64,000 nucleotides of DNA from an uncultured Spirochaetota bacterium (GCA_963820525.1 CAWGAA010000001.1:2112001-2176000); one strand, 5' to 3'. Positions 1 through 12,556 are shown, counted from the stretch's first letter. A program made the numbers and translations. Notes: generated by a model not told the origin, from the sequence alone.

Positions 1-1916
1 GTCTTCACGCTCACCAGGTTCACGATCGTTTTGTACAGAAGGATGCCCTGGGAGATGATGGCCCGGATCGTGCGCAAGAGCTCAAGCTCGTGCGCGTCAA
101 CGTTCTGACTCCCCGTTCGGTTGGAGAGGATGAGCATCCCCAGCGTGTCGCGGCCGCCGCGGAGAGGCAGAAACACGAAGGAAGAAATAAGGCTCTTCAC
201 CCCCGCGTCGATGTCGGGCCTATTGGCGAGGATCCTGTTGATGTCTTCCATGGGGATGGGGAGAACTTCCCCGGGGCTCTTGGATTCCGCCGTGAGCTGC
301 AGATGCAGCTCGCATGCCACGCCGGCCGCCGCTTCGCTCACCGGGTCCAGCGAATACTTCTTGAAGCTTCCCCCCTTCTCGAAGGACACAAGCGCGCACG
401 CATCGCAGGTGAGGAAGCTCTTGAGTATCTGCACGATGGAGGTCATGACGGAGTCGAAATCGGCGGAGCTTCGAAACCGCTCGCTCAGGATGAACAGAAG
501 CGTCTGCTCGGACAGCCTCCTTTCCATTTCACGGAAGATGATGCTCTTCTCGATTGCCGTGGCAGTCTGGTTGGCTATTGTATTGAGGAACCGCAGGTCC
601 TCGTTGTTGTACATTGTGCCGGCAAGCTTCGGTCCCATAATCAGGGTTCCCATGAGCTTGTCTTTCAACAACACCGGCACCACCAGGGAGATGTCGGCAC
701 CTTTGAAGAGGTGGTGGTTGTCCTCGAGGATGGGGCGGGCGCAGGGATCCATGAGGGCCTCTTCCCTCACCAGCGGCTTGCCCTCCTTACTGAGCCAGCG
801 CGCCAGGGTGCTCTGCTCCCCGATGCCCAGATCCGTGGAGGGTCCGGGAGCGGAGCCGGCGGACTTGCGCACAGTGAAGGCGTTTCTCTGTTCATCGAGC
901 AGCGCGATGGAAAGCCCCACGGGTTTGACGGTTTCCGCCACGGCATTGCCGACGAGATCGAGGATCCGCTCGGTGTCGTAGAGGTGGGTTACGTCGCGGC
1001 TGAAGGACTGGGTCGCTTTCTGGTAGTCCGACTTCTCCCGGAAAAATATCTTGTCCAAAGCATTCTGCAGAAGGTTTCGAAGCGGAAGGAAGATCAGGCC
1101 GAGGATGAGGATCACGATGATTCCATATGACTGTCCCGTGTACCCGATGCTCTGCTTGAGGACGCTCTCCATGACGAAGACGACCCCGAGGTAGACCGCG
1201 ACGAGGGCCAGCGTGAGGATCGAGTAGAAAAGGCTTCGCGCCAGAAAAAAACGGATGTCGAGCAGCCGGTGGCGTACCACCGCGTACCCGATGATGAGCG
1301 CGCTCACGAGGTTGAAGGAGATGTCCACGGGGTAATCGCGCAGCCCTGTAAGGTTCGAGCTCAGCCCGATCACCATGACACTGGCGCCGAGCAGCACGTA
1401 GATGATGCGGTTCCTCTGCACGGGGGACTTTTCCCGCACGAACGCCCTGACCAGGTTGTAGATCCCGCAGAGCCAGAAGAAGTACGAGCCCGCGATTATG
1501 ACGAAGACCCTGGGATTGTTGAACACGGGGACGAAGTAGCCGCTGCGGCCGAACTCTACTTCCTGAAATTGCAAGCTGAGGAAACCGCCGGCCAGGATGA
1601 CCGCGCAGCTGGCGTATGACAGGATGACCAGCGCCCTCTGTCTCTTGATATTCAGAAACGAACGGGAAAAAAGGAAGAAGAATGCGTTGATCGTGCCTGA
1701 GCAGGCCAGAAGGAGGTTGTACAACACCAATGCCGTCTGGGCCGCTTTGGTAAAGTTGACAATAAGGGACGTTAACTGCAAGCAGAGAATCGCCAGGAGA
1801 TATGTGGAGAAGAAGATCCGCACACCACGCTCCGCCCTGCTGCGCAGGGTAAGCAGAGCCAGAACAAGGTAGCTCAGAAGCGCGACAAGCTTGACGATCG
1901 TGGATAGTACCAGCAT
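1..1916 (-). CDS. Membrane 7TM-GAF sensor protein, paralog of 2048..4972; runs off the left edge, so the output domain is not visible
   Basis: Absent from the ORF track (no stop in window). Hand translation from ATG 1916 gives MLVLSTIVKLVALLSYLVLALLTLRSRAERGVRIFFSTYLL..., and the frame ends ...LYKTIVNLVSVK at base 3. Both ends are colinear with the 974-aa neighbour (MLVFFTAIKIVALLSYLTLALFTL...LYRTIVNLVSVKT). Confidence 0.9.
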   Translation of the reverse strand, partial: MLVLSTIVKLVALLSYLVLALLTLRSRAERGVRIFFSTYLLAILCLQLTSLIVNFTKAAQTALVLYNLLLACSGTINAFFFLFSRSFLNIKRQRALVILSYASCAVILAGGFLSLQFQEVEFGRSGYFVPVFNNPRVFVIIAGSYFFWLCGIYNLVRAFVREKSPVQRNRIIYVLLGASVMVIGLSSNLTGLRDYPVDISFNLVSALIIGYAVVRHRLLDIRFFLARSLFYSILTLALVAVYLGVVFVMESVLKQSIGYTGQSYGIIVILILGLIFLPLRNLLQNALDKIFFREKSDYQKATQSFSRDVTHLYDTERILDLVGNAVAETVKPVGLSIALLDEQRNAFTVRKSAGSAPGPSTDLGIGEQSTLARWLSKEGKPLVREEALMDPCARPILEDNHHLFKGADISLVVPVLLKDKLMGTLIMGPKLAGTMYNNEDLRFLNTIANQTATAIEKSIIFREMERRLSEQTLLFILSERFRSSADFDSVMTSIVQILKSFLTCDACALVSFEKGGSFKKYSLDPVSEAAAGVACELHLQLTAESKSPGEVLPIPMEDINRILANRPDIDAGVKSLISSFVFLPLRGGRDTLGMLILSNRTGSQNVDAHELELLRTIRAIISQGILLYKTIVNLVSVK

Positions 1917-1922
1917 CTGTCC

Positions 1923-2022
1923 TCAGTTCTTCCAGGAACGTATAAGTGCGCAAGGTCCCTCCGGACGCTTGCCTCTCGCCATAGTATCTACGAAACATTC
2001 CCTTGGAAAGCAGAGAGATGCG
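1923..2022 (-). pseudogene. Degenerate 3' remnant of a GH3-family gene
   Basis: Translates ISLLSKGMFRRYYGERQASG and, in another frame, LIRSWKN*. The intact GH3 C-terminus reads VSILSKGTFHRYYEERQAAG...RMSSWKI*. DNA CCTTGGAAAG is identical at 2001-2010 and 5111-5120. Confidence 0.8.
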
Positions 2023-2047
2023 CCACACCCCGGGCAGCGTATCGGCA

Positions 2048-4972
2048 CTATATCTCCTTGAAGAGGATCGTGAAGCGGGTCCCGCGGCCGCTTTCAAGCT
2101 CGATTCTGCCCTTGAGCTGCTCCGTGAGCGTGCACACGAGCTTCAGCCCCAGGGACTCCGTGTCGCGAAAGTTCAGGCCCGGGGGGAAGCCCTTCCCATC
2201 GTCAGAGACCGTCAGGCGGAACCACTTCTCCGCCGGCCCGCCCTTCATGCCGTCGGGCGGATCCGCGGGATTCATCACGATCCGCACCTTCCCCGATCGA
2301 TCCGCCGAGAAAGCGTGCTTGAGGGAGTTGGAGACCAGCTCGTTGATGATGAGGCCGCAGGGCACGGCGGTGTCCATCCCGAGGGTGATGTTGGCCACCT
2401 CCAGGCAGAGGTCCACCGCGCTGGCCTGCTCGCCGTATGACATGAAGAGGTTTCGCATCAGGTCCCGGATGTATTCGGAGAAGGCAATGCCGGCGGGGCT
2501 GTTGGACTGGTAGAGCTTTTCATGGAGCAGCGCCATGGAGCGGACGCGGTTCTGGCTCTCCCGGAACATCTCCCGCGTCTTCTCCTCCTGGACGTAGCAG
2601 GACTGGAGGTACAGGAGGCTGGAGATCACCTGGAGGTTGTTCTTGATCCGATGGTGGATCTCCTTGATGAGGAGCATGTTCTTCGACATCTCCTCCGCCT
2701 TGAGGCGCTCCGTGATGTCCCGCGCGATCCCGACGATCTCGCGGGTCTTGCCGTCCTCTCCCGTCATGACGGAGCCGGAAAAGAGCATCGGCACTTCGGT
2801 CCCGTCACTGGTGCGGTACTTCATCTCGTAGTTGGAGACGGACCCGGCGGCGAGCAGGCCAACGATGCCTTCCTCGGTGAACAGGGCCTCCCCCTTTCCC
2901 GCAACCTCCCTCATGTGCCGGCCGACGAGCTCCTCCTCCCTGTAGCCCAGCCGCCTGCGGGTGGCCCTGTTCACGCTCTTGATGGTGCCCGCTAGGTCCA
3001 GGATCACAAGCGTGTCCCCCATGTTGTTGAGGCTGCCGAGGATGTTCTCGTTGTACGTCTTCACGCTCACAAGGTTCACGATCGTTCTGTACAGAACGAT
3101 GCCCTGGGAGATGATGGCCCGGATCGTGCGCATCAGCTCAAGCTCGCGCGCCTCCACGTTGGGGCCCCCCGTGCGGTTGGGCAGGATCAGCATCCCCAGT
3201 GTGTCGCTGCCGCCGCGGAGGGGCAGAAACACGAAGGAGGCAATGAGGCCCCGGAGCCCCGTGTCGATGTCAGGCCGCCGGGCGAGAATGCCGTCGATCT
3301 CCTCCGGGGGGATGGGGAGGGCCTCCCCTGTGCTCTTGGATTCCGCCAACAGCCGCGCTTGAAGCTCGCACGCCACGCCCGCCGCCGCGTCGCTCACCGC
3401 GTCCAGGGAATACCTCTTGGAGCTTCCCGCCTTCTCGAAGGAGACAAGGGCGCAGTAGTCGCAGGTGAGGAAGCTCTTGAGAATCTGCACGATGGAGGTC
3501 ATGACGGAGTCGAAATCGGCGGAGCTTCGAAAGCGCTCGCTCAGGATGAATAGGAGCGTCTGCTCGGACAACCGCCTTTCCATCTCCCGGAAGGTGATGC
3601 TCTTCTCGATTGCCGTGGCGGTCTGGTTGGCAATGGTGTTGAGGAACCGCAGGTCCTCGTCGTTGTACATCGTGCCGGAACGTTTCGGCCCCATGAACAA
3701 CATTCCCATCAGCCTGTTCTTCAGCATGATGGGGGCCACGAGCGATACGTCGGCGGCTTCCAGCAGGTGCCGGTTCTCCTCCGCCACCGTCCGCATCACC
3801 GGATCGATCAGCGCTTCCTCGCGCAGGACGGGCCGGCCGTTTGCCCGAAGCCAGCGGGCCAGGGAGCCATGCTCCGCCAGTGCCATATCCGCCGCCGGCG
3901 CCGCAGTCCTGCCAAGCGATTTGCGCACGGAGAAGACCTTGCGCTCCTCGTCGAGAAGCGAGATGGTGAGCCCCGACGGCTTGATGGCTCTGGACACGGT
4001 GTCGGCGACCAGATCGAGGATGCGGTCAGTGTCGTACAGCGAGGTGACGTCGCGGCTGAAGGACTGCGTCGCCTTCTGGTAGTCCGACTTCTCCCGGAAG
4101 AAGAGCCTGTCCAAGGTGTTTTGCAGCATATTGCGGAGCGGCAAGAAAAGAATGGCCACGATGATGATGCCCGCAATGCCGTACGCCGGGCCGGTATAGC
4201 CAATTTGACGTTGGATAAGGCTTCCAAGCCCTACGGCAATGCCCAGGTATGCGGCGACGAGGCTGCTTGTGAGCAAGGAATATAAAAGGCTTCGAGCGAG
4301 CAGAAAACGGATGTCGAGAAGCCTGTGGCGGACGACGGCGTAGCCGATAATGAACGCGCTCACGAGATTGAAGGAAATGTCAACGGGATAATCCCGCAAA
4401 CCTGTCAGGTTCGACGTGAGCCCGATCATGACGCTCAGCGCCCCCAGGAGAACGTAGAAAATGCGGTTGCGCTGCATTGGGGAGCTTTCCGCCCTCAGCC
4501 TCCGGACGAGATTGAAAATCCCGAAGAAAAAGAAAAAGGCTGAGATGCCGACCAACGCAAAGAGTCCCTTTGCGTTGAACACGGGAACCCAGTAACCGCC
4601 TCGACCGACGCTCACCCCCTGCCATGGCAATCCCATGAGCGAGCCCGCCAGAAGAGCTGCGCAGGAGATGAAGGCGAGAACCATGAGAAACTTCTGGCGC
4701 GTGATCCCGATGAAGGCCCTCGTGAAGGGGAAGAAAAGAATCGCCCAATTGAAGGTGCCGGCGAACACGAGCTTGTACCAAAACAACGCGGCTTCGGCGT
4801 TCTGTGACAGATTCACCATGATCGCGGTGAACTGCCAGAACGCCATCCCGTACAGATAGATGGAGAAGTACACCCGTGTGCGCCGATCGGACTTGCTGAG
4901 CAGGGTAAAAAGGGCGAGGGTCAGGTAGCTGAGTAATGCGACGATCTTGATGGCGGTGAAGAATACGAGCAT
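2048..4972 (-). CDS. Membrane sensor histidine kinase: N-terminal 7TM-type membrane domain, GAF, PAS, HisKA_2, HATPase_c
   Basis: About 280 hydrophobic N-terminal aa; GAF motif (PIMLKNRLMGMLFMGPKRSG..Y..EDLRFL..IANQ); PAS ending ARDITER; H-box EIHHRIKNNLQVISSLL; N-box NELVSNSLKHAF; DDGKG; G2 SLGL. Confidence 0.93.
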   Translation of the reverse strand: MLVFFTAIKIVALLSYLTLALFTLLSKSDRRTRVYFSIYLYGMAFWQFTAIMVNLSQNAEAALFWYKLVFAGTFNWAILFFPFTRAFIGITRQKFLMVLAFISCAALLAGSLMGLPWQGVSVGRGGYWVPVFNAKGLFALVGISAFFFFFGIFNLVRRLRAESSPMQRNRIFYVLLGALSVMIGLTSNLTGLRDYPVDISFNLVSAFIIGYAVVRHRLLDIRFLLARSLLYSLLTSSLVAAYLGIAVGLGSLIQRQIGYTGPAYGIAGIIIVAILFLPLRNMLQNTLDRLFFREKSDYQKATQSFSRDVTSLYDTDRILDLVADTVSRAIKPSGLTISLLDEERKVFSVRKSLGRTAAPAADMALAEHGSLARWLRANGRPVLREEALIDPVMRTVAEENRHLLEAADVSLVAPIMLKNRLMGMLFMGPKRSGTMYNDEDLRFLNTIANQTATAIEKSITFREMERRLSEQTLLFILSERFRSSADFDSVMTSIVQILKSFLTCDYCALVSFEKAGSSKRYSLDAVSDAAAGVACELQARLLAESKSTGEALPIPPEEIDGILARRPDIDTGLRGLIASFVFLPLRGGSDTLGMLILPNRTGGPNVEARELELMRTIRAIISQGIVLYRTIVNLVSVKTYNENILGSLNNMGDTLVILDLAGTIKSVNRATRRRLGYREEELVGRHMREVAGKGEALFTEEGIVGLLAAGSVSNYEMKYRTSDGTEVPMLFSGSVMTGEDGKTREIVGIARDITERLKAEEMSKNMLLIKEIHHRIKNNLQVISSLLYLQSCYVQEEKTREMFRESQNRVRSMALLHEKLYQSNSPAGIAFSEYIRDLMRNLFMSYGEQASAVDLCLEVANITLGMDTAVPCGLIINELVSNSLKHAFSADRSGKVRIVMNPADPPDGMKGGPAEKWFRLTVSDDGKGFPPGLNFRDTESLGLKLVCTLTEQLKGRIELESGRGTRFTILFKEI

Positions 4973-4979
4973 CTGACCT

Positions 4980-6587
4980 TCAAATCTTCCAGGAGCTCAT
5001 CCGTAAAAGGTTCTCGATGACCTTGTCGGATGCGTTGACGTGCGGGGGTTTCAGGTGCCCGAGATCCGCGCCCGCCGCCTGTCTCTCCTCATAATAGCGG
5101 TGGAACGTCCCCTTGGAAAGGATCGAAACGGTCAAGGGCTTCATGCCGATCATCTCTTCCAGATCATGATAGGGCCGGTCGATTTTTTTCAACTCCTCAT
5201 GAATTTTTTCGGCGACCGCCGCTGCTGTCGCGGTCCCTTCGCGGAGCTCGAGGTAGAGATGGAGAATAGGCTGGCCTCCGCGACTCTCTTTCCGCACCGT
5301 CCACTCCTCATAGGGTACGCCGGAAGCTTCAATGGCCAGCCATATGATTTTTTCCGTCAAACGGGTGAAATTACCGATATCGATCAATCCGTCGATCCGG
5401 GAGACGTATGTGATCTGTGGGAGAAGGATGCCGGCCGCCGGATCCTCGAGAGCGGTGACCTTGACGAGGTCCCCGACGATGTAGCGTATCATGGCGCCGC
5501 CGTAGAAATTTGTTCCCACAAGCACGTATTCCGAGCCTGGCTGCACCTCATCCATCAGGAACGACCGGGGAATGAGGGAAGAGTCCTGTACGACTGCCCT
5601 GTAGTCCTTTTCGGGAAGGAACTCCCAGAAATCAAACTCGGGGTGGAAGACGAAACCGCCGCGAGTCCAGGACTGGGGGCCCATCCCCAGGTACTCCGTG
5701 GCCACGTACGCTTCGAGGGGTTCGACGCCCCAGGATTGCGCAACTGTATTCTTGAAGATCGACGTATCGGTGCCGCCGCAGAGCACACCGCTCACTTTCC
5801 ACATGTCCTTGAGTTGGATCGGTTTTCCCGTGAGCGCCCTCTTGAGAAGCGCCTTCGAGATTCGGAAAAGCGCCCTGGGATCCATGGGGATCTTTGCCGC
5901 CGAGCCGCGCTGTCCGATGCGGCCAAGACTTTCGCTTATCTTCAGCAGTATCGAGGTGACGCCGAAGAAAAAGTCCAGGCCTTCGCTCAACGCCCTGCGG
6001 AAAGCCTCCCGGATCCTCTCCTGAAACTCCATGGTGACCGCTTTCTCGATGGGGGGAAATGCGACGAAATCGAACTGCTCCATCAGACTCTGAAAGAGGA
6101 GTCCCGATGCATAGGGAGGAGGGGCCACGAGATAGGGGATTTTCATGCCCGCGTGCAGTTTGACGTCGCCCCTCTTCTTCGCCATGGCGATGATGAATGC
6201 GCTCAGGGACACTTCTCCGAGAATATCGTACATCCTCCTCGTATAGGGGATCCACTTCAGCGCGTACTCCCCGCTGTTGCCCGAGGTGTGGGCCCAAACG
6301 AAAGGTTTTTCGGGCAGTACGTCTTCATTACGACTGAGCAGGAAGGGTTCGTAGTCCTTGTACGTGGTGAAAGGGACAGTCGCGCGGAAATCCTCCATCG
6401 TTTTCGGTCGCGCGCCTCGCATGATGCGGGCGCCGAGCTCGCAGCCGGCGAGTCTCGGCAGCTGCTCCTCGAGGAGCTTGCGCTGAATGGCCATGTACTG
6501 GCCGATATTCAAATCGAGAAATCCGCAATACTTCTGCCAGATTTCTCGCTTTTTCCCCTGCCTCAGAAGCTCGGTAGCGGTAGCCAT
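4980..6587 (-). CDS. GH3-family adenylate-forming enzyme (acyl acid-amido synthetase-like)
   Basis: 535 aa with GH3 motifs: VPFTTYKDY, HTSGNSG..KWIPYT (P-loop), YVATE, YVLVGTN..G.IRYIVGD. Confidence 0.85.
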   Translation of the reverse strand: MATATELLRQGKKREIWQKYCGFLDLNIGQYMAIQRKLLEEQLPRLAGCELGARIMRGARPKTMEDFRATVPFTTYKDYEPFLLSRNEDVLPEKPFVWAHTSGNSGEYALKWIPYTRRMYDILGEVSLSAFIIAMAKKRGDVKLHAGMKIPYLVAPPPYASGLLFQSLMEQFDFVAFPPIEKAVTMEFQERIREAFRRALSEGLDFFFGVTSILLKISESLGRIGQRGSAAKIPMDPRALFRISKALLKRALTGKPIQLKDMWKVSGVLCGGTDTSIFKNTVAQSWGVEPLEAYVATEYLGMGPQSWTRGGFVFHPEFDFWEFLPEKDYRAVVQDSSLIPRSFLMDEVQPGSEYVLVGTNFYGGAMIRYIVGDLVKVTALEDPAAGILLPQITYVSRIDGLIDIGNFTRLTEKIIWLAIEASGVPYEEWTVRKESRGGQPILHLYLELREGTATAAAVAEKIHEELKKIDRPYHDLEEMIGMKPLTVSILSKGTFHRYYEERQAAGADLGHLKPPHVNASDKVIENLLRMSSWKI

Positions 6588-6605
6588 CCTGCGCCCCCTG
6601 TACCT

Positions 6606-7223
6606 TCAATTTATATCCTTATCTCCTTGCGATTTCAAAGGAAAACGATACGTTTGCATGCACCTGGCGATGCTCGACGGCGTCGGAATGAGAAAGGGCA
6701 CCGTGCGGCGGTATGCGTCGTATGCGCTTCCGAAAATGCGCGGGAAAAGGATCACGTCCTCCACGGCCACCAGGAGGGCATCCGCGACGGTCCACAGGGG
6801 GACCGCCAGGAGCAGGAGACGTGAGCCGCTCAACGCCGCGATGGACAGGAGAAAAAGGGGAAGCCAGAGGACCCCCGGATGTCGACAGAGCGCGTACGTG
6901 CCCGTGGTGACCACCCGCCTCTCCGCTCTCCCTTCGGCGCGGGACGGGAAAACGGCAATCTCCAGGAAAAGAGAGGATGCGAGGAGGAAGAGGAATACAG
7001 CCGAGCAAATCCCTCCCGCCGCCCGCAGGAGAACCGGCGGGGCGAAGCGGTCGCCGTTCAACAGCAGCGCCGCAAGGGCGGCGAGCAGGAGCGCCGCGGA
7101 GCCCGCGATCGAGCCCACGCGAAGCGCCCGCAGCCCGCGCCAATCGGCCCAATCGGAGAGGAGAAAGAGGGGAAAGCTCGCCGTGCCCGCGATGAGAGCG
7201 ATCACGCCTTGAGGTCCCGACAT
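6606..7223 (-). CDS. Integral-membrane methyltransferase, isoprenylcysteine carboxyl methyltransferase (ICMT)/PEMT-like
   Basis: Several TM segments; VVTTGTYALCRHP motif; ED..L...FG..Y..YRR.VPFLIP C-terminal motif. Confidence 0.82.
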   Translation of the reverse strand: MSGPQGVIALIAGTASFPLFLLSDWADWRGLRALRVGSIAGSAALLLAALAALLLNGDRFAPPVLLRAAGGICSAVFLFLLASSLFLEIAVFPSRAEGRAERRVVTTGTYALCRHPGVLWLPLFLLSIAALSGSRLLLLAVPLWTVADALLVAVEDVILFPRIFGSAYDAYRRTVPFLIPTPSSIARCMQTYRFPLKSQGDKDIN

Positions 7224-7224
7224 C

Positions 7225-8751
7225 TCATTCGCGTTCGAAGGCGATCAGGCAGATGTCGTCCTCGAAATCCCTGCTCACCCGCCACTGCAAAAGCTGGGCG
7301 TCGATTGCTGCCACTGCATCCTGAAGGTTCGCGCTCCTCGTCTTCCTGATCAGCGCCATGACCCGATCCTCCGAGAACTTCACCATGTCCGGGTTCCCGC
7401 AGTCGATGAGGCCATCAGAGTAGAAGAAAAGCCGGTCGCCCGGCTCCAGGGCGAGCTCGGATTCGGCAAGCTCGAGCTCGGGCGCGAGCCCGAGGGCGCG
7501 GCCGGGGACCCGCAGGATGTGGAGGCCGCCGTCGCCTTTCTGCCATACGGGATACGGCTGGCCCGCCCGCGCGATGGTGACCTTCCAATCCGTGGTGTCG
7601 ATGATGCCGTACAGGATGGAGAAATAGGGGATCCCCGAGGCCGGGACGAACTTCTCGTTCAGCTTCTCCATGACATCCCGCGGCGAGAGGGGATCCGCAT
7701 CGAGCAGCGGCAGCCGGCCGTGCGGGCTGGAGGGTGAGGGAAAGATCAGGCGGTGCAGGAGAAGCGAATTGACGGCGGAAGCAAGACCGTGGCCCGCAAC
7801 GTCGATCATGTACAGGCAGACGTGGCGGGAATCAACGGGGAAGGCGTTGAACAGGTCTCCGGCGGCGAGGTCCGAGGGATGGAACAGCCATTGCACGCGA
7901 AGGCCGGGAATCTCCACGTCTTCGCGGGGAAGCAGGTTCCTCTGCAGCTCGAGGGCCTGCGCGAGCTCGCGGGAAACGATGTCGCGGAACTTCGTGCGCT
8001 CCGTGACGTCCCGGAACGCCAGAACGACCCCGCGGACATTGCCGTTTTCATCCCGATAGGGGGCGAGGGTGCAATCCACGCGGATCCGCCCGCGGTCCCT
8101 GGTGAGGAGAATGAGATCCGTCATCTCCGCGATCTCGCCGCTCTTGACCACCCGGGCGAGCGGAACAACCACCTTTTCCAGGGTCTCGGCGTCGAAGACC
8201 GTGAGGATCTGTCCAAGGCACACGCCGGAGCCGGCGTGCTCGCTGCCCAGGAGGGTCCTCTGCGCCGTGGGGTTGAGATACTCGACCAGCCCCTTGGTAT
8301 CCGCCACGACCACCCCTTCGCCGATGGAGCGCAGGATCGTCTGCAGCTTTTCCTTTGCGCGCCAGAGCTTCCCCTCCATCGTCGACTTGTAGAGGGCCAT
8401 CTCCACGGTGGCCTGCAGGGTCCTCTCTTCGAAGGGCTTGGTGATATAGCCGAAGGGCTCCGTCAGCTTCGCCCTCTCCAGGGTCTTCTCTTCCGAGTAT
8501 GCCGTAAGATAGACGATGGGCACGCGGAATGCCTCCCGGATCATCCCCGCCGCCTCGACACCATCGATGACGCCCTTGAGGCGGATGTCCATGAGGATGA
8601 GGTCGGGCTCCACCTCCATGGCCTTGCGCACCGCCTCCTCGCCGGTGGATACGGTGACGGGCACCTCGTAGCCCATGTTCTTGAGGCTTTTCTCAATCGC
8701 GAGCGCGACGAGACTTTCGTCCTCGACGATCATGATTCGCGATTTCTCCAT
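7225..8751 (-). CDS. Response regulator receiver + PAS + SpoIIE (PP2C-type) phosphatase
   Basis: REC (IMIVEDE, LILMD, LTAY, ITKPF); PAS ending FRDVTER; SpoIIE motifs LQRNLLP, AGDLF, IDVAGHG, YSDGL, EDD. Start placed at MEKSR (8751); the ORF extends to 8844. Confidence 0.92.
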   Translation of the reverse strand: MEKSRIMIVEDESLVALAIEKSLKNMGYEVPVTVSTGEEAVRKAMEVEPDLILMDIRLKGVIDGVEAAGMIREAFRVPIVYLTAYSEEKTLERAKLTEPFGYITKPFEERTLQATVEMALYKSTMEGKLWRAKEKLQTILRSIGEGVVVADTKGLVEYLNPTAQRTLLGSEHAGSGVCLGQILTVFDAETLEKVVVPLARVVKSGEIAEMTDLILLTRDRGRIRVDCTLAPYRDENGNVRGVVLAFRDVTERTKFRDIVSRELAQALELQRNLLPREDVEIPGLRVQWLFHPSDLAAGDLFNAFPVDSRHVCLYMIDVAGHGLASAVNSLLLHRLIFPSPSSPHGRLPLLDADPLSPRDVMEKLNEKFVPASGIPYFSILYGIIDTTDWKVTIARAGQPYPVWQKGDGGLHILRVPGRALGLAPELELAESELALEPGDRLFFYSDGLIDCGNPDMVKFSEDRVMALIRKTRSANLQDAVAAIDAQLLQWRVSRDFEDDICLIAFERE

Positions 8752-8905
8752 GCCATTACCCCGAAGAGCCGTCCCGTTTGATATGCACCTCACAATGTAG
8801 CGAAAAAGAGGACGAATTTCCATGGCGGGGCAGCCGTGCAACACACACCCGTTTGTCTCCCCCGAACGGACGGATTACTTTTTTTACGTGAAGGGAGAAT
8901 GTCCC

Positions 8906-9091
8906 ATGTCGCACGCGGGTCGCTCGCTGAACACCGATTCGTCGACTTACTCCGCGGCACTTCCCTACACTACCCTGCCGCAGCTTTTGCGCGCCGTTAC
9001 AGCCTCCTTCAACCGGGATGACGCCCTGAACTATCCCCTCGATGGGCCTCAGCCCGTAGAGGCGGCGCCCGGCCCGTTGGACGCATTGTAA
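8906..9091 (+). pseudogene. Possible N-terminal remnant of a long-chain acyl-CoA synthetase (AMP-binding family)
   Basis: RBS-like GGGAGA upstream. Peptide TLPQLLRAVTASFNRDDALNYPLDG resembles FadD-type N-termini but stops after 61 codons. Confidence 0.35.
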
Positions 9092-9107
9092 AAAGATGAT
9101 CTTTTGC

Positions 9108-9149
9108 TTGACAGAATGTATAACATTTGTTATAATAACTTGAGTTATA
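9108..9149 (+). promoter_or_regulatory. Consensus sigma70 promoter overlapped by two palindromic operators
   Basis: TTGACA 9108-9113, 17-bp spacer, TATAAT 9131-9136. Operators TATAAC-N4-GTTATA (9119-9134) and ATAAC-N4-GTTAT (9135-9148). RBS GAGGAGG before ATG 9161. Confidence 0.9.
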
Positions 9150-9160
9150 CAGAGGAGGCT

Positions 9161-9742
9161 ATGACACAGAAGATTTCATTCACAAAGGAGATGATCGTCG
9201 AGGTCGCCTTTTCCCTGACCAGGGAGTTGGGGTGGTCCGCCGTGACAGCCCGAAGCATCGCCAAGAAGCTCGGATCTTCCACCATGCCGATTTACTCGAG
9301 CATGAGATCAATGGAAGAGATCGAGCAGGAGGTGAGAAAAAAGGGTGAGAAGCTCATGTTCGATTACCAAAAGCGCTCCTTTACCGACAAGCCGATGCTC
9401 AACATGGCGATCGGCTATGTCACCTTCGCCCGGGACGAGCAGAAGCTTTTCCGCTTCCTGTTCGTGGATCGCCCCGTTGCCGTCAGCCGGCAGGACGTAG
9501 AGCCGGAGCCCGGAGAGCCGGAGCCGGGCTACGCACCGTTGAACGGAGTCGTAACCCTCGCCGATCAAGCGCCCACCGCGATGAAGAACCCGCTCGTACT
9601 GAAGAACTGGATCTTCACGCACGGCCTGGCATCGATGATCTCGGCCGGGGTCCTGGACCTGGCGGACGAGAGGATTCGAAGCCTGCTCGAGGAGGCGGGG
9701 GGAGCGTTCTACAAAGAAAGGAAGGAAAGAAGGAATGGGTGA
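9161..9742 (+). CDS. TetR/AcrR family transcriptional regulator (WHG-type C-terminus)
   Basis: N-terminal HTH (VTARSIAKKLGSSTMPIYS); C-terminal WIFTHGLA; strong RBS. Confidence 0.9.
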   Translation: MTQKISFTKEMIVEVAFSLTRELGWSAVTARSIAKKLGSSTMPIYSSMRSMEEIEQEVRKKGEKLMFDYQKRSFTDKPMLNMAIGYVTFARDEQKLFRFLFVDRPVAVSRQDVEPEPGEPEPGYAPLNGVVTLADQAPTAMKNPLVLKNWIFTHGLASMISAGVLDLADERIRSLLEEAGGAFYKERKERRNG

Positions 9743-10664
9743 AGTCGTGGTTTCCGTGAGGAACTTCAGAAAGCGCTATGGGGACACCGTGGCGGTCAAG
9801 GGTATCACCTTTGAGGTGAACCGGGGCGAGATCTTCGCGCTCCTGGGGCCGAACGGCTCGGGCAAGACGAGCACCCTGGAAAGCCTCGAAGGGCTGCGGC
9901 ATCCCGACGGAGGAGTCCTTTCGATCTCCGGGATAGACCCCAGCAGGCAGCCGCGGAGGCTTCGAAACATCATCGGGGTCCAGCTGCAGACCTCTGCGCT
10001 TCCGGCGGCGATGACCGTGGACGAGGCGATGAGCTTCTTCTGCAGCTACCATGGAGTGGCGGTCCGAAACGATCTGGTCCAGCGGCTGGGCATCTCGGAG
10101 AAGCGCGCCACCCAGTATGGAAAGCTTTCCGTGGGTCAGCAGAGGCGGCTCGCCCTGGCAATCGCCATCGCTCACGAGCCCGGCGTGCTCTTCCTCGACG
10201 AGCCGACGGCGGGTCTGGACGTGCAGTCGCGCGCCGATCTCCACGCCCTGGTGAGGGAGCTGCGAGAGAAGGGCACGACCGTGATACTGGCCACCCACGA
10301 CATGGCGGAGGCGGAGAAGCTGGCGGACCGCGCGGCGATCCTTCTCGGCGGCGAGATTGCCGCAATCGGCAGCCCCCGGCAGCTTACCGCGGCGGGAAGC
10401 CGAAAGACGCGCATCTCCGTGGCCACGGAGAACGGCAGCATGCAGACGGGGAAGGTCGCATTTCCCGACGCCGTATTCCAGGCCCACGCTGACGGCTACT
10501 CGATGTACCTCTCCGAGAACCCGGGAAAGGCGGTGAGCTCGATCATCGCCTGGCTGGAGCAGGCCGGCGACTCTCTCATCGACCTGCGCGTCGAGCGGCC
10601 CAGCCTCGAGGAGCGCTTCCTGGAGATCACATCTGAAAACACCGCAAAAGGAGCAATGAAATGA
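9735..10664 (+). CDS. ABC transporter ATP-binding protein (ABC-2 exporter type)
   Basis: Walker A GPNGSGKT, signature LSVGQQRR, Walker B LFLDEPTAGLD, H-loop ATHDM. Confidence 0.95.
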   Translation: MGEVVVSVRNFRKRYGDTVAVKGITFEVNRGEIFALLGPNGSGKTSTLESLEGLRHPDGGVLSISGIDPSRQPRRLRNIIGVQLQTSALPAAMTVDEAMSFFCSYHGVAVRNDLVQRLGISEKRATQYGKLSVGQQRRLALAIAIAHEPGVLFLDEPTAGLDVQSRADLHALVRELREKGTTVILATHDMAEAEKLADRAAILLGGEIAAIGSPRQLTAAGSRKTRISVATENGSMQTGKVAFPDAVFQAHADGYSMYLSENPGKAVSSIIAWLEQAGDSLIDLRVERPSLEERFLEITSENTAKGAMK

Positions 10665-11473
10665 GCGCGTTCATACACCACCTCGCCTACGATTTCAAGA
10701 CCGGCATCAGGGACAGGTCAAAGCTCCTGATGTTCTACCTCTTCCCCTTCGTGTTCTTCATCCTGGTTGGAGCCCTGATGTCGGGAGTCAACCCCGGCTT
10801 CAAGCAGACCATGCTTCCCGCCATGGCGCTGTTCGCCTTCATGTGCTCGGCGCTCTTGAGCCTGCCAAGCCTCCTTGTGAGCGCGCGGGAAGCGGGGGTC
10901 TTCAGGAGCTACAGGATAAACGGCGTGCCCTCGGCCTCCATCATCTCCATCCCCGTGATCGGAACGGCCGTCCACATGGCCCTGATCGCCGTCATCATAA
11001 CCCTGGCCGGCGAACGCTTCTTTGGCGGCACCGCTCCGGCGAACATCGCGGGATATGCGCTAGCGGCGCTTCTTTCGTACCTCGCATACGCGGGGATCGG
11101 GGTTCTCATTGGCGTGGCGGCGGGCAACATCACGGTTTGCACCCTCGTGAGCCAGCTCATCTACATCCCCTCGATCATCCTCGGCGGGCTCATGGTGCCC
11201 TTGTCGATCCTGCCCGGGGGACTCCAGCGGGTGGCGCTCCTCCTGCCGGCGACGCACAGCATGAAGGTGTTCACCGATCTCGGGATGCCCGGCTCGGCGG
11301 GAACGCCCTGGCTTTCCATTTGCGTCCTTGCCGCGAGCGCCGCGCTCAGCTTCGGCCTGGCGGCCCTGCTGTTCGAATGGGATTCGCGCACAAGCCAGCC
11401 TAGCCGCAAGGCCATCGCCGCGATTCTGGGCATCGCGCCGTACGCGGTTGCCGCGCTGATCGGGACAAGCTGA
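10661..11473 (+). CDS. ABC-2 type transporter permease
   Basis: About 6 TM helices; RE.G motif; LGGLMVP...LP...LLPATH; ATGA overlap with the ATPase gene. Confidence 0.92.
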   Translation: MSAFIHHLAYDFKTGIRDRSKLLMFYLFPFVFFILVGALMSGVNPGFKQTMLPAMALFAFMCSALLSLPSLLVSAREAGVFRSYRINGVPSASIISIPVIGTAVHMALIAVIITLAGERFFGGTAPANIAGYALAALLSYLAYAGIGVLIGVAAGNITVCTLVSQLIYIPSIILGGLMVPLSILPGGLQRVALLLPATHSMKVFTDLGMPGSAGTPWLSICVLAASAALSFGLAALLFEWDSRTSQPSRKAIAAILGIAPYAVAALIGTS

Positions 11474-11539: not shown

Positions 11540-12556
11540 TTGTACTTGGTGTCCATGACGGCGAGGCAGGTGCCGGCGTCTGCATCGTGGAGAAACAAAA
11601 TGCTTCGGGGCGTATCAGTGGGGCAGCTTCTCATCGATGCGGAGGCGGTCGTCGACGGCGGCGTGACGCTTGCAGCCCTTGTGCTCTTTGGCACTCGGAG
11701 CGCCCTCAGGAAGCACCTCGCCCAGGCAGAGGTGATATTCGAGTACCGGTCCTCCGAAACAGCGGGACCGGCGCAGCAACGGAAGGAATACCAGGATGGG
11801 CTTTTCGTTCTCGACGTGCCGACATTCGATGAGCGATCAATCCGTGAGGCGATTCTGAACGCGGTGAGCTACCGTGACTACAGGCAGAGTGGCAACGTCT
11901 TCGTTCGTCAGTACCCCCGTCGGGTCGCCATTGAGAGCCCCAGTGGGTTCCCGCCAGGCATCAACGAAGCAAACGTGCTGGAACGGCAAAACCCGAGGAA
12001 TCGGCGTATCTCGGACATCTTCGCGAAGTGTGGTCTGGTCGAGCGCTCCGGGCAAGGTATGAATCTGATTTTCGACGCGGCAATCCGACAGAGCAAACCG
12101 ACGCCAGACTTCGCGGGTACGGACCGCTTCCAAGTCAGACTGACGCTGGAAGGCGAAGTACGTGATCCTGCATTCGTCCGTTTCCTGGAACGTGTCACCG
12201 CAGAGTCATCGGTATCCTTCTCGACTACCGACCTCGTGGTTCTCGATCACATCAGGCGCGATATGCCTGTCTCGGAGGGACTTGGGTCCAGAATAACCGC
12301 ACTGGTCGAGAATGGAATCGTGGAAAGAGTCAGCCATGGGCGAGGCCAGCGGTACGTCCTGTCGCGCCGCTTCTACCAGTTCATCGGGCAGGCCGGGGTG
12401 TACACGAGGAAGCACGGTCTGGACCGCGACACAAACAAGGCACTCCTCGTCAAGCACATTAAGGAGAACGCCCTGAGTGGTGCCAAGATGGAGACGCTCC
12501 GGCAGGTGTTGCCGAACCTTTCGCGAAGCCAGATTCAGGTCCTCCTGCGGGAGTGA
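11540..12556 (+). pseudogene. Truncated ATP-binding protein (HATPase_c_4/RecG-C-like domain plus winged HTH; family usually has an N-terminal Schlafen/AlbA_2 domain)
   Basis: IREAILNAVSYRDY...IESPSGFP...PRNRRISDIFAKCGLVERSGQGM. No N-terminal domain or convincing start; begins right at the island boundary. Confidence 0.7.

Follow-up and report, generated by a model that had tools for sequence, protein, structure and literature searches.

Gene content of the locus

The window analysed here is a 64,000-nt stretch of DNA from an uncultured Spirochaetota bacterium (GCA_963820525.1 CAWGAA010000001.1:2112001-2176000), with coordinates counted from its first letter. Open reading frame (ORF) calling placed five co-oriented minus-strand genes at 1-8751. 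Among them is a gene for a GH3-family enzyme, lying between those for a membrane protein resembling isoprenylcysteine carboxyl methyltransferase (ICMT) and a membrane sensor kinase. Comparison of this gene trio across genomes suggests that it is a so far undescribed module for both producing and sensing a lipid-like signal of its own. No published description of a GH3-sensor cassette was found in a literature search, supplements excluded. To our knowledge, bacterial GH3 enzymes are almost uncharacterised, and we know of no ligand for the HisKA_7TM sensor domain. By tying a GH3 ligase and a predicted carboxyl methyltransferase to such a sensor, the cassette provides a direct handle on the function of the former and the ligand of the latter.

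Gene 1 (7225..8751, minus strand, as for all five) encodes a REC-PAS-SpoIIE (PP2C phosphatase) response regulator of 508 aa, with Pfam scores of 75.7 bits for Response_reg, 49.1 for PAS_4 and 110.9 for SpoIIE. Its ORF is open to 8844; start analysis and the position of REC in paralogues make ATG 8751 the likely start. Gene 2 (6606..7223, 205 aa) encodes the ICMT-like five-helix membrane protein, a probable S-adenosylmethionine-dependent carboxyl methyltransferase judging by its family profile, an AlphaFold2 (AF2) model and gene fusions. Gene 3 (4980..6587, 535 aa) encodes a predicted GH3-family adenylating amido synthetase, assigned by Pfam, a profile search of the Protein Data Bank (PDB) and motifs. 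Gene 4 (2048..4972, 974 aa) encodes a sensor kinase in which Pfam and an AF2 model delineate about nine transmembrane (TM) helices (HisKA_7TM), a GAF domain, a second, unassigned region, and PAS, HisKA_2 and HATPase_c domains. Pfam scores were 56.8 bits for HisKA_7TM (PF16927, cut-off 28.6), 62.1 for GAF_3, 44.2 for PAS_9, 102.3 for HisKA_2 and 44.6 for HATPase_c, the last two placing it among the HisKA_2/HWE-type kinases. Gene 5 (1..1916, ORF 3..1916) is a tandem paralogue of gene 4 with a 7TM-GAF-PAS layout; the window holds its first 638 codons, and the frame is open at the window start. HisKA_7TM scored 47.7 bits in this part and 47.2 bits in the full protein.

Genes 1 to 4 are separated by only 1, 18 and 7 nt, stop codons counted. 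An earlier, sequence-only reading of this DNA had described these four packed, co-oriented genes, and ORFs and Pfam matches bear it out. It had also placed a second 7TM-GAF receptor behind the kinase; a receptor does follow, but its kinase domain is missing (759 aa, 7TM-GAF-PAS).

The same reading had named failure against the GH3 hidden Markov model, beforehand, as grounds for its own rejection. The protein scores above the cut-off in each of the three Pfam GH3 models, with 40.0 bits for GH3, 34.3 for GH3_M and 30.5 for GH3_C (PF03321, PF23571 and PF23572; cut-off 23.6 each). A GH3 profile returned the plant enzyme JAR1 (4epl, E 1.2e-15) as the best solved relative in the PDB. Residues T101, G103, K111, E298, R368 and D373 are invariant in 15 GH3 sequences, and an 81-sequence alignment retained T101 in 76/79, G103 in 79/79 and both E298 and R368 in 81/81. 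We take these conserved residues to be the nucleotide-binding motifs of adenylating enzymes. GH3 is single-copy in the window's genome, as is the ICMT-like gene, and the 7TM paralogues number two.

Conservation of the cassette and its sensor

A scan of species genomes yielded 413 GH3 loci, and the best 80 were examined. By the labels of their metagenome-assembled genomes (MAGs) these comprise 67 Chloroflexota, 10 Spirochaetota and one each of Bacillota, Calditrichota and Saccharimonadota. In 68 of the 78 evaluable loci, one of the first three genes downstream of GH3, co-oriented with it, encodes a homologue of the window's 7TM region (51 at +1, 15 at +2 and 2 at +3), and three further loci carry such a homologue elsewhere in the locus. 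The gene arrangement is more than chance, since it recurs at this frequency in MAGs labelled as five phyla. Among 201 Spirochaetota genomes sampled, the GH3 clade occurs in seven, the window's included, and in all seven the best sensor-module match lies directly downstream of GH3.

A methyltransferase gene is the third recurring partner. ICMT-like genes are separate in 37 of 73 evaluable loci and fused to GH3 in four more (L023, L028, L056 and L070), while in 14 a class I Rossmann methyltransferase, non-homologous to the ICMT-like gene, lies near GH3. Metagenomic GH3 homologues at 45-68% identity are common (at least 120 matches listed), and three among the 120 listed are likewise ICMT-like::GH3 fusions of 739-750 aa (P0032, P0063 and P0082). 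The two enzymes are thus sometimes one polypeptide. In 13 Dehalococcoidia loci a beta-ketoacyl synthase gene lies between GH3 and sensor. The conserved core is methyltransferase, GH3 and 7TM/GAF sensor, and these three genes are inherited together across phyla.

The linkage of GH3 to a 7TM sensor in distant genomes, on which the sequence-only reading had staked its proposal of a signal-synthase/receptor operon, holds by neighbourhood scoring in 68 of 78 loci and in all seven GH3 carriers among the 201 genomes. Its methyltransferase-GH3-sensor core stands, with HisKA_7TM-type sensors and ICMT-like proteins (41 of 73 loci) recurring as GH3 partners. Its other two members fared less well: SpoIIE is peripheral to the conserved cassette, a PP2C homologue being found near GH3 in one of the 80 loci, and the second receptor is the kinase-less protein described above.

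Sensor outputs were classified by a Pfam scan of 54 of 55 complete sensors, a 245-aa split fragment in L024 being left out. All 54 share the N-terminal module, defined by homology to the window's 7TM region, and most have Pfam HisKA_7TM and GAF matches. Their outputs divide equally into 27 kinases and 27 cyclic di-GMP (c-di-GMP) enzymes. The kinases are of HisKA_2 (6), hybrid HisKA-HATPase-REC (8), HisKA_3 (5) and HisKA (8) type; the c-di-GMP enzymes carry GGDEF and HD-GYP together (23), GGDEF only (1) or HD-GYP only (3). As the input module is constant while the outputs vary, we assign the enzymes to the input side of the sensor.

Many Spirochaetota genomes encode full-length 7TM-GAF sensors that are not accompanied by GH3. 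Twenty high-scoring examples were hand-picked from different families and their neighbours read. Five of these form a group in which four sensor kinases of about 1040-1060 aa (L085:3550-6660, L087:1717-4905, L088:4992-8135 and L089:1453-4608) end in a GNAT domain; the fifth, L086, is cut by the contig end. The best Pfam match of the fused domain is FeeM (PF21926), at 32.8 bits in L085 and 40.8 in L087 (cut-off 27), and the same domain was found in L088 and L089 by tblastn. Atlas neighbours of the domain are GNAT clusters, some with FeeM or Acetyltransf_5. Evidence for the FeeM label is moderate. An ICMT-like gene adjoins three of the five sensors (L086, L087 and L088), and a REC-HD-GYP gene lies divergently beside all five.

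Other GH3-less sensors have different enzyme neighbours. Directly upstream of 7TM-GAF-HD-GYP sensors lie genes for PilZ-fused proteins: one with a sub-threshold radical SAM match (L084:3009-4943), an Aminotran_1_2 enzyme (L090:3338-4993) and an HMG-CoA reductase (L091:3567-5357). The combination of a c-di-GMP-binding PilZ fusion with an HD-GYP sensor looks like a feedback loop between sensor output and enzyme. One further sensor lies behind a Methyltransf_20 gene, one behind an SDR gene and four behind ECF sigma/anti-sigma pairs; the rest of the hand-picked sensors had no obvious enzyme neighbour. The placement of 7TM-GAF sensors behind other small-molecule enzymes fits a role of such enzymes in making ligands.

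A quick maximum-likelihood tree was built from 52 sensor modules, 32 of the 72 GH3-linked sensors and the 20 GH3-less ones. On one side of a branch with 97% support fall 14 GH3-less Spirochaetota sensors. On its other side is a clade of 38, made up of all 32 sensors linked to GH3 in the tree, from MAGs labelled Spirochaetota, Chloroflexota and Bacillota, the five sensors of the GNAT group and a single long-branch orphan. Nested within this clade, the GNAT group is sister to the GH3-linked sensor of a Clostridia-labelled MAG (96%). The GH3-linked label requires 3 changes on the tree against 16.3 in shuffles, with 0/500 shuffles as low, and the major clades recur in a 31-row tree of GH3. Both trees come from quick searches of compositionally heterogeneous sequences, are unrooted and include related genomes that are not independent. 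Topology and label shuffles indicate that the sensor lineage tracks the partner enzyme and not the taxonomy. In one lineage an unrelated acyltransferase, of a type yielding the same product class, appears from the sequences to have taken the place of GH3, with the methyltransferase kept.

These results bear on whether the adjacency means anything at all. With 67 of the 80 loci labelled as a single phylum, it could be functionally meaningless synteny inherited by related genomes. Yet the pair persists where GH3 identity to the window's enzyme falls to 39-47% and where sensor outputs differ, the two enzymes occur as fusions, and sensor phylogeny follows partner, not taxon. Meaningless synteny is barely credible against this record, and methyltransferase, GH3 and sensor very probably work as one functional unit.

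Two side observations concern the GH3 neighbourhoods. Radical SAM genes are repeated neighbours of the cassette in a subset of Chloroflexota loci, in one family at L018, L037, L044, L059 and L060 (f18) and in another at L043 and L072 (f16); the f18 representative from L018 also has a B12-binding domain and the f16 representative from L043 a Radical_SAM_C domain. They may add a further modification step. In one relative (G155:C45:10976-12588) the GH3 preceding its sensor is split between two frames (query 1-290 and 284-535), reflecting a frameshift or a sequencing error.

Predicted ligand and signalling pathway

Single-sequence matches to the gene 2 protein were weak, with 19.4 bits for DUF1295 (Pfam cut-off 20.4) and 16.6 for the isoprenylcysteine methyltransferase model NF040696 (NCBIfam cut-off 160). 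A family alignment of 30 sequences, comprising the window's protein and those of 29 of the 37 separate upstream genes from related loci, kept the motifs G-x-Y-x-L-x-R-H-P and F-x-x-x-F-x-x-x-Y-x-x-Y-x-x-x-x-P. Used as a profile against PDB sequences, this family gave four matches: three ICMT entries (4a2n, E 3.5e-6; 5vg9, 3.4e-4; 5v7p, 4.5e-4) and one weak unrelated one, with no reductase among them. The fused homologue P0082 is annotated with PF04191 in precomputed annotation. An AF2 model of gene 2 (pLDDT 90.3) matched ICMTs with VIA Z-scores of 10.6, 10.3 and 9.9; reductases scored 11.4 (4quv, an NADPH-dependent sterol reductase) and 9.4 and 8.5 (steroid reductases). The top three Foldseek matches were ICMTs, at weak E-values of 0.03-0.07. 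The fold superfamily, that of ICMT and related reductases, is settled. Within it, methyl transfer is the predicted activity in preference to reduction because of the sequence profile and the displacement of the gene by class I methyltransferases, and is the predicted conserved step of the cassette.

The sensor was modelled with AF2 over residues 1-460 from a 38-sequence alignment (pLDDT 85.3, pTM 0.62). Nine helices cross the membrane in the model, as hydropathy also indicates; the loop at 117-132 contains a short beta hairpin, and a long helix at 263-309 precedes the GAF domain, which has a structural match at Z 17.9 in a search of 48,161 chains. Residues 1-230 align to G protein-coupled receptor (GPCR) bundles, best to 8jmt (Z 16.7, 215 residues, rmsd 5.2) and also to several lipid-binding GPCRs (Z 14.4-15.4). 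This GPCR-like topology of the model bears no sign of kinship and would fit a ligand pocket inside the membrane.

An enzyme pair tied so strictly to a sensor input module might instead act on the sensor itself, acylating, amidating or methylating it in an adaptation comparable to CheR/CheB. Such a role would suit ICMT, whose classical substrate is a protein carboxylate. Across the 38 sensor modules, however, no K, C, S, T, D or E is conserved at 90% or above, which argues against a fixed modification site. Related sensors pair with an aminotransferase, an HMG-CoA reductase and an SDR, all unlikely protein modifiers, and the membrane methyltransferase is replaceable by a soluble class I enzyme. 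GH3 homologues of at least 938 residues, as a sensor fusion would require, were searched for and none was found, which is weak evidence in the same direction. Receptor modification is accordingly very improbable in our judgement.

We instead favour a ligand made by the enzymes and read by the sensor. GH3, at the cytoplasmic face of the membrane, would adenylate a lipophilic carboxylic acid, for which a fatty acid is the likeliest candidate, and join it to an amino acid. The ICMT-like enzyme would then methyl-esterify the free alpha-carboxylate of the N-acyl amino acid, as ICMT prefers a lipid-bearing amino-acid carboxylate, the kind of group this intermediate would offer. The resulting neutral lipid would bind the roughly nine-helix membrane domain of the sensor, the first seven helices of which are GPCR-like, and the signal would pass through the long helix and GAF. 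That GH3 and methyltransferase make the sensor's ligand is, in our estimate, an evenly balanced proposition; an N-acyl amino acid, probably methyl-esterified, is our best prediction of what the sensor reads. The sequence-only reading, in which an acyl-amide, possibly methylated, is sensed by the co-encoded receptor, is partly supported: the fusions, the class I displacement, the constant input module and the bacterial GH3 enzyme OlsH all fit it.

The product class itself, a methyl-esterified N-acyl amino acid, is assigned only tentatively, by analogy, and is somewhat less likely than not; the assignment draws on OlsH, ICMT substrate preference, and the ketoacyl synthase and FeeM-like substitutions. 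OlsH of Singulisphaera acidiphila is a GH3-like lyso-ornithine lipid synthetase that forms N-acyl ornithine, with free fatty acid, ATP and ornithine as its substrates (PMC12493201).

In place of synthesis, the enzymes may process a signal, acting on a fatty or aromatic acid arriving from host or environment and either activating or inactivating it. Plant GH3s do both, JAR1 activating jasmonate and others inactivating auxin, and the sequence-only reading had also allowed for inactivation of an acyl-amide. All of the linkage evidence fits processing equally well, and the window's operon contains no dedicated acid-synthesis gene. The substrate of OlsH is free fatty acid, not acyl-acyl carrier protein (acyl-ACP) (PMC12493201). 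Against processing, the ketoacyl synthase inside the cassette in the 13 Dehalococcoidia loci suggests that the acid is made in place, and no uptake system is conserved. FeeM-type synthases use acyl-ACP, and the subclade with a fused GNAT domain, best matched by FeeM, points to synthesis from the cell's own pools. Processing of an incoming acid seems to us unlikely, if the most serious competitor to ligand synthesis.

Membrane-lipid homeostasis would require the enzymes to make a bulk amino lipid, with the 7TM sensor monitoring membrane state or that lipid for envelope adaptation. The ICMT-like enzyme and the sensor are both predicted to be membrane-embedded, and RND and ABC-2 transporter operons flank the locus. 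A membrane-lipid precursor is the product of the one bacterial GH3 of this kind that has been characterised (PMC12493201). The window's GH3, however, scores 33.2 bits against the OlsH equivalog model (NCBIfam NF052613, cut-off 620), over the C-terminal half only. No OlsI/OlsA-type O-acyltransferase is present among neighbour families conserved across loci, related loci do not share the flanking transporters, and the cassette has a sparse, patchy distribution (7 of 201 Spirochaetota genomes), unlike a core lipid pathway. A homeostatic role is therefore improbable.

Several observations weigh against the making and sensing of a ligand by the cassette. The best 80 of 413 loci, 67 of them under a Chloroflexota label, are not independent, and MAG labels may be wrong. 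Seven of the 78 evaluable loci lack a sensor, five of them with less than 2.4 kb of downstream flank, and in 18 of the 73 evaluable loci no methyltransferase was seen. No exporter is conserved in the cassette among the loci examined. The ICMT-like fold matches a sterol reductase (Z 11.4) as well as it does ICMTs. The GPCR likeness of the sensor is one of topology, at 4-12% identity and Z 14-16.7, a range where helical bundles match by arrangement. For the fused GNAT domain, the FeeM label comes from Pfam, whereas NCBIfam gives a sub-threshold generic GNAT and a PDB profile search generic acetyltransferases.

Downstream of the sensor, the pathway is lineage-specific. In the window's spirochaete the HisKA_2 kinase would phosphorylate the REC-PAS-PP2C protein encoded first in the operon. 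Two further pairs of HisKA_2 kinase and REC-PAS-SpoIIE protein occur in this genome, with CHASE4 and PAS inputs; the three pairs in all indicate that a REC-PAS-SpoIIE phosphatase is the usual response regulator of this kinase type in the genome. The SpoIIE phosphatase is a lineage-specific output. Small STAS proteins are the usual PP2C substrates in partner switching, and the genome holds 8 STAS and 6 STAS_2 matches; the phosphatase would probably act on such STAS-type partner-switching proteins.

The kinase-less paralogue, 759 aa when whole (G000:C1:2111637-2113916; L001:11637-13916), has no HisKA_2 or HATPase match to Pfam over its full length. Over 765 alignment columns it shares 69% identity with the kinase, and its homologues (49 at E <= 1e-50) are nearly all full-length kinases. 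A pseudogene was considered and rejected on account of the intact frame at 31% divergence and a dN/dS of 0.13-0.39 across all domains, which indicates purifying selection. Values of dS between paralogue and kinase are 1.2 in 7TM, 1.9 in the linker, 1.0 in GAF, 0.35 in the middle region and 0.10 in PAS. This 5'-to-3' fall suggests either that the 3' part has undergone gene conversion or that the ligand-binding half is diverging. The probable role of the protein is to titrate ligand or to enter mixed dimers with the kinase.

Regulatory features of the locus are modest. The upstream non-coding region (8752..9114, minus strand), shared with a divergent TetR gene, has a weak sigma-70-like match at 9114-9085 (9/12 positions, a match to consensus only). 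Consensus matching also gave weak promoter-like and terminator-like sites at 2015..2074 (minus strand), in the 131-nt spacer between kinase and paralogue; the region as a whole has 9 terminator-like sites against 6.9 expected from shuffles, which is no excess. Rfam and tRNA scans of the window returned no match. PADLOC, which covers anti-phage defence, gave two weak matches to the REC region (19 and 17 bits) and nothing for the other four proteins.

Beyond the operon, a divergent TetR-like gene and an ABC-2 transporter pair occupy 9104-11473 on the plus strand, the TetR assignment being a C-terminal domain match below the Pfam cut-off. A 12/12 sigma-70 consensus with extended -10 lies ahead of the TetR-like gene at 9108-9136, and from it the TetR start is probably an ATG near 9161 rather than TTG 9104. 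Beside the transporter genes lies a HATPase_c_4 gene resembling the RecG C-terminus (11540-12556, plus strand). An AcrB-type RND pump gene that converges on the paralogue (L001:7088-10268; G000:C1:2107088-2110268) lies immediately beyond the window start and is split into two overlapping ORFs of 787 aa (ACR_tran 5-590) and 433 aa (604-1020), a probable frameshift or assembly error. The TetR/ABC-2 and RND operons were considered as signal exporters and dropped, as they are not conserved in related loci.

Comparison with known systems

The window's GH3 belongs to the same family as plant JAR1/GH3.11, at about 20% identity or less. The JAR1 conjugate, jasmonoyl-isoleucine (JA-Ile), is the form read by the plant receptor. 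That receptor is a soluble F-box complex and the genes are unlinked, whereas here a polytopic membrane sensor adjoins the enzyme gene. OlsH is a parallel as a bacterial GH3 with conserved nucleotide-binding motifs. It differs in having the O-acyltransferase OlsI as partner, in place of a methyltransferase and a sensor, and in its product, a bulk membrane lipid (PMC12493201).

The gene 2 protein shares with ICMT/Ste14 (4a2n, 5vg9) the fold superfamily and the C-terminal cofactor-site motifs (G-x-Y...R-H-P and E/D-x...F-G-x-x-Y-x-x-Y...P). It falls below the Pfam and NCBIfam ICMT cut-offs, and it probably acts on a small lipid instead of a prenylated protein. A methyltransferase-derived lipid signal has precedent in PhcB/PhcS of Ralstonia, in which an S-adenosylmethionine-dependent methyltransferase gives rise to a fatty-acid methyl ester detected by a sensor histidine kinase (PMC8578825, PMC11960443). 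That system differs in having no GH3 step and in that PhcB is a soluble methyltransferase.

The sensors share the 7TM and GAF N-terminal layout of PrsK, from the PEP-CTERM/exosortase system. TIGR02916 (PrsK) aligns to residues 12-457 of the paralogue, but the window's two sensors score 37.6 and 48.1 bits against a cut-off of 300 and are not PrsK, and no exosortase or PEP-CTERM genes were present among the flanking genes scanned near the window's cassette. Haft described the PrsK stimulus as obscure in 2006 (PMC1569441). N-acyl alanine methyl esters (NAMEs) occur in Roseovarius tolerans, and PMC11580390 describes no synthase genes as known for them. Three unrelated synthases, namely GH3 ligases, sensor-fused FeeM-like GNATs and PEP-CTERM-linked N-acyl amino acid synthases, might feed this 7TM sensor type interchangeably, a doubtful proposal at present. 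If true, it would name the PrsK stimulus, give the orphan N-acyl amino acid synthases a function and offer a route to NAME-type compounds. Forming the active ligand by conjugation of an acid, as plants do with JA-Ile, would then also be a logic common to plants and bacteria.

In gene organisation the nearest counterparts are CqsA/CqsS and LuxM/LuxN of Vibrio, in which the synthase gene adjoins that of a polytopic membrane kinase binding a hydrophobic autoinducer in its membrane domain. Those pairs use other enzyme and receptor families and involve no methyl transfer. CqsA is presumably a member of Aminotran_1_2, the Pfam family of the PilZ-fused enzyme in L090. Adjacency of synthase and membrane receptor, a feature of autoinducer pairs, is found here in 68 of 78 loci, with the synthase role predicted. 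Should the cassette make and sense its ligand as proposed, it would extend bacterial signalling by a new chemical class. This would operate in anaerobes such as Chloroflexota and Spirochaetota, most of them uncultured, and would control phosphorelays and c-di-GMP turnover there. The cassette would then be a new form of the signal-enzyme and membrane-sensor pair.

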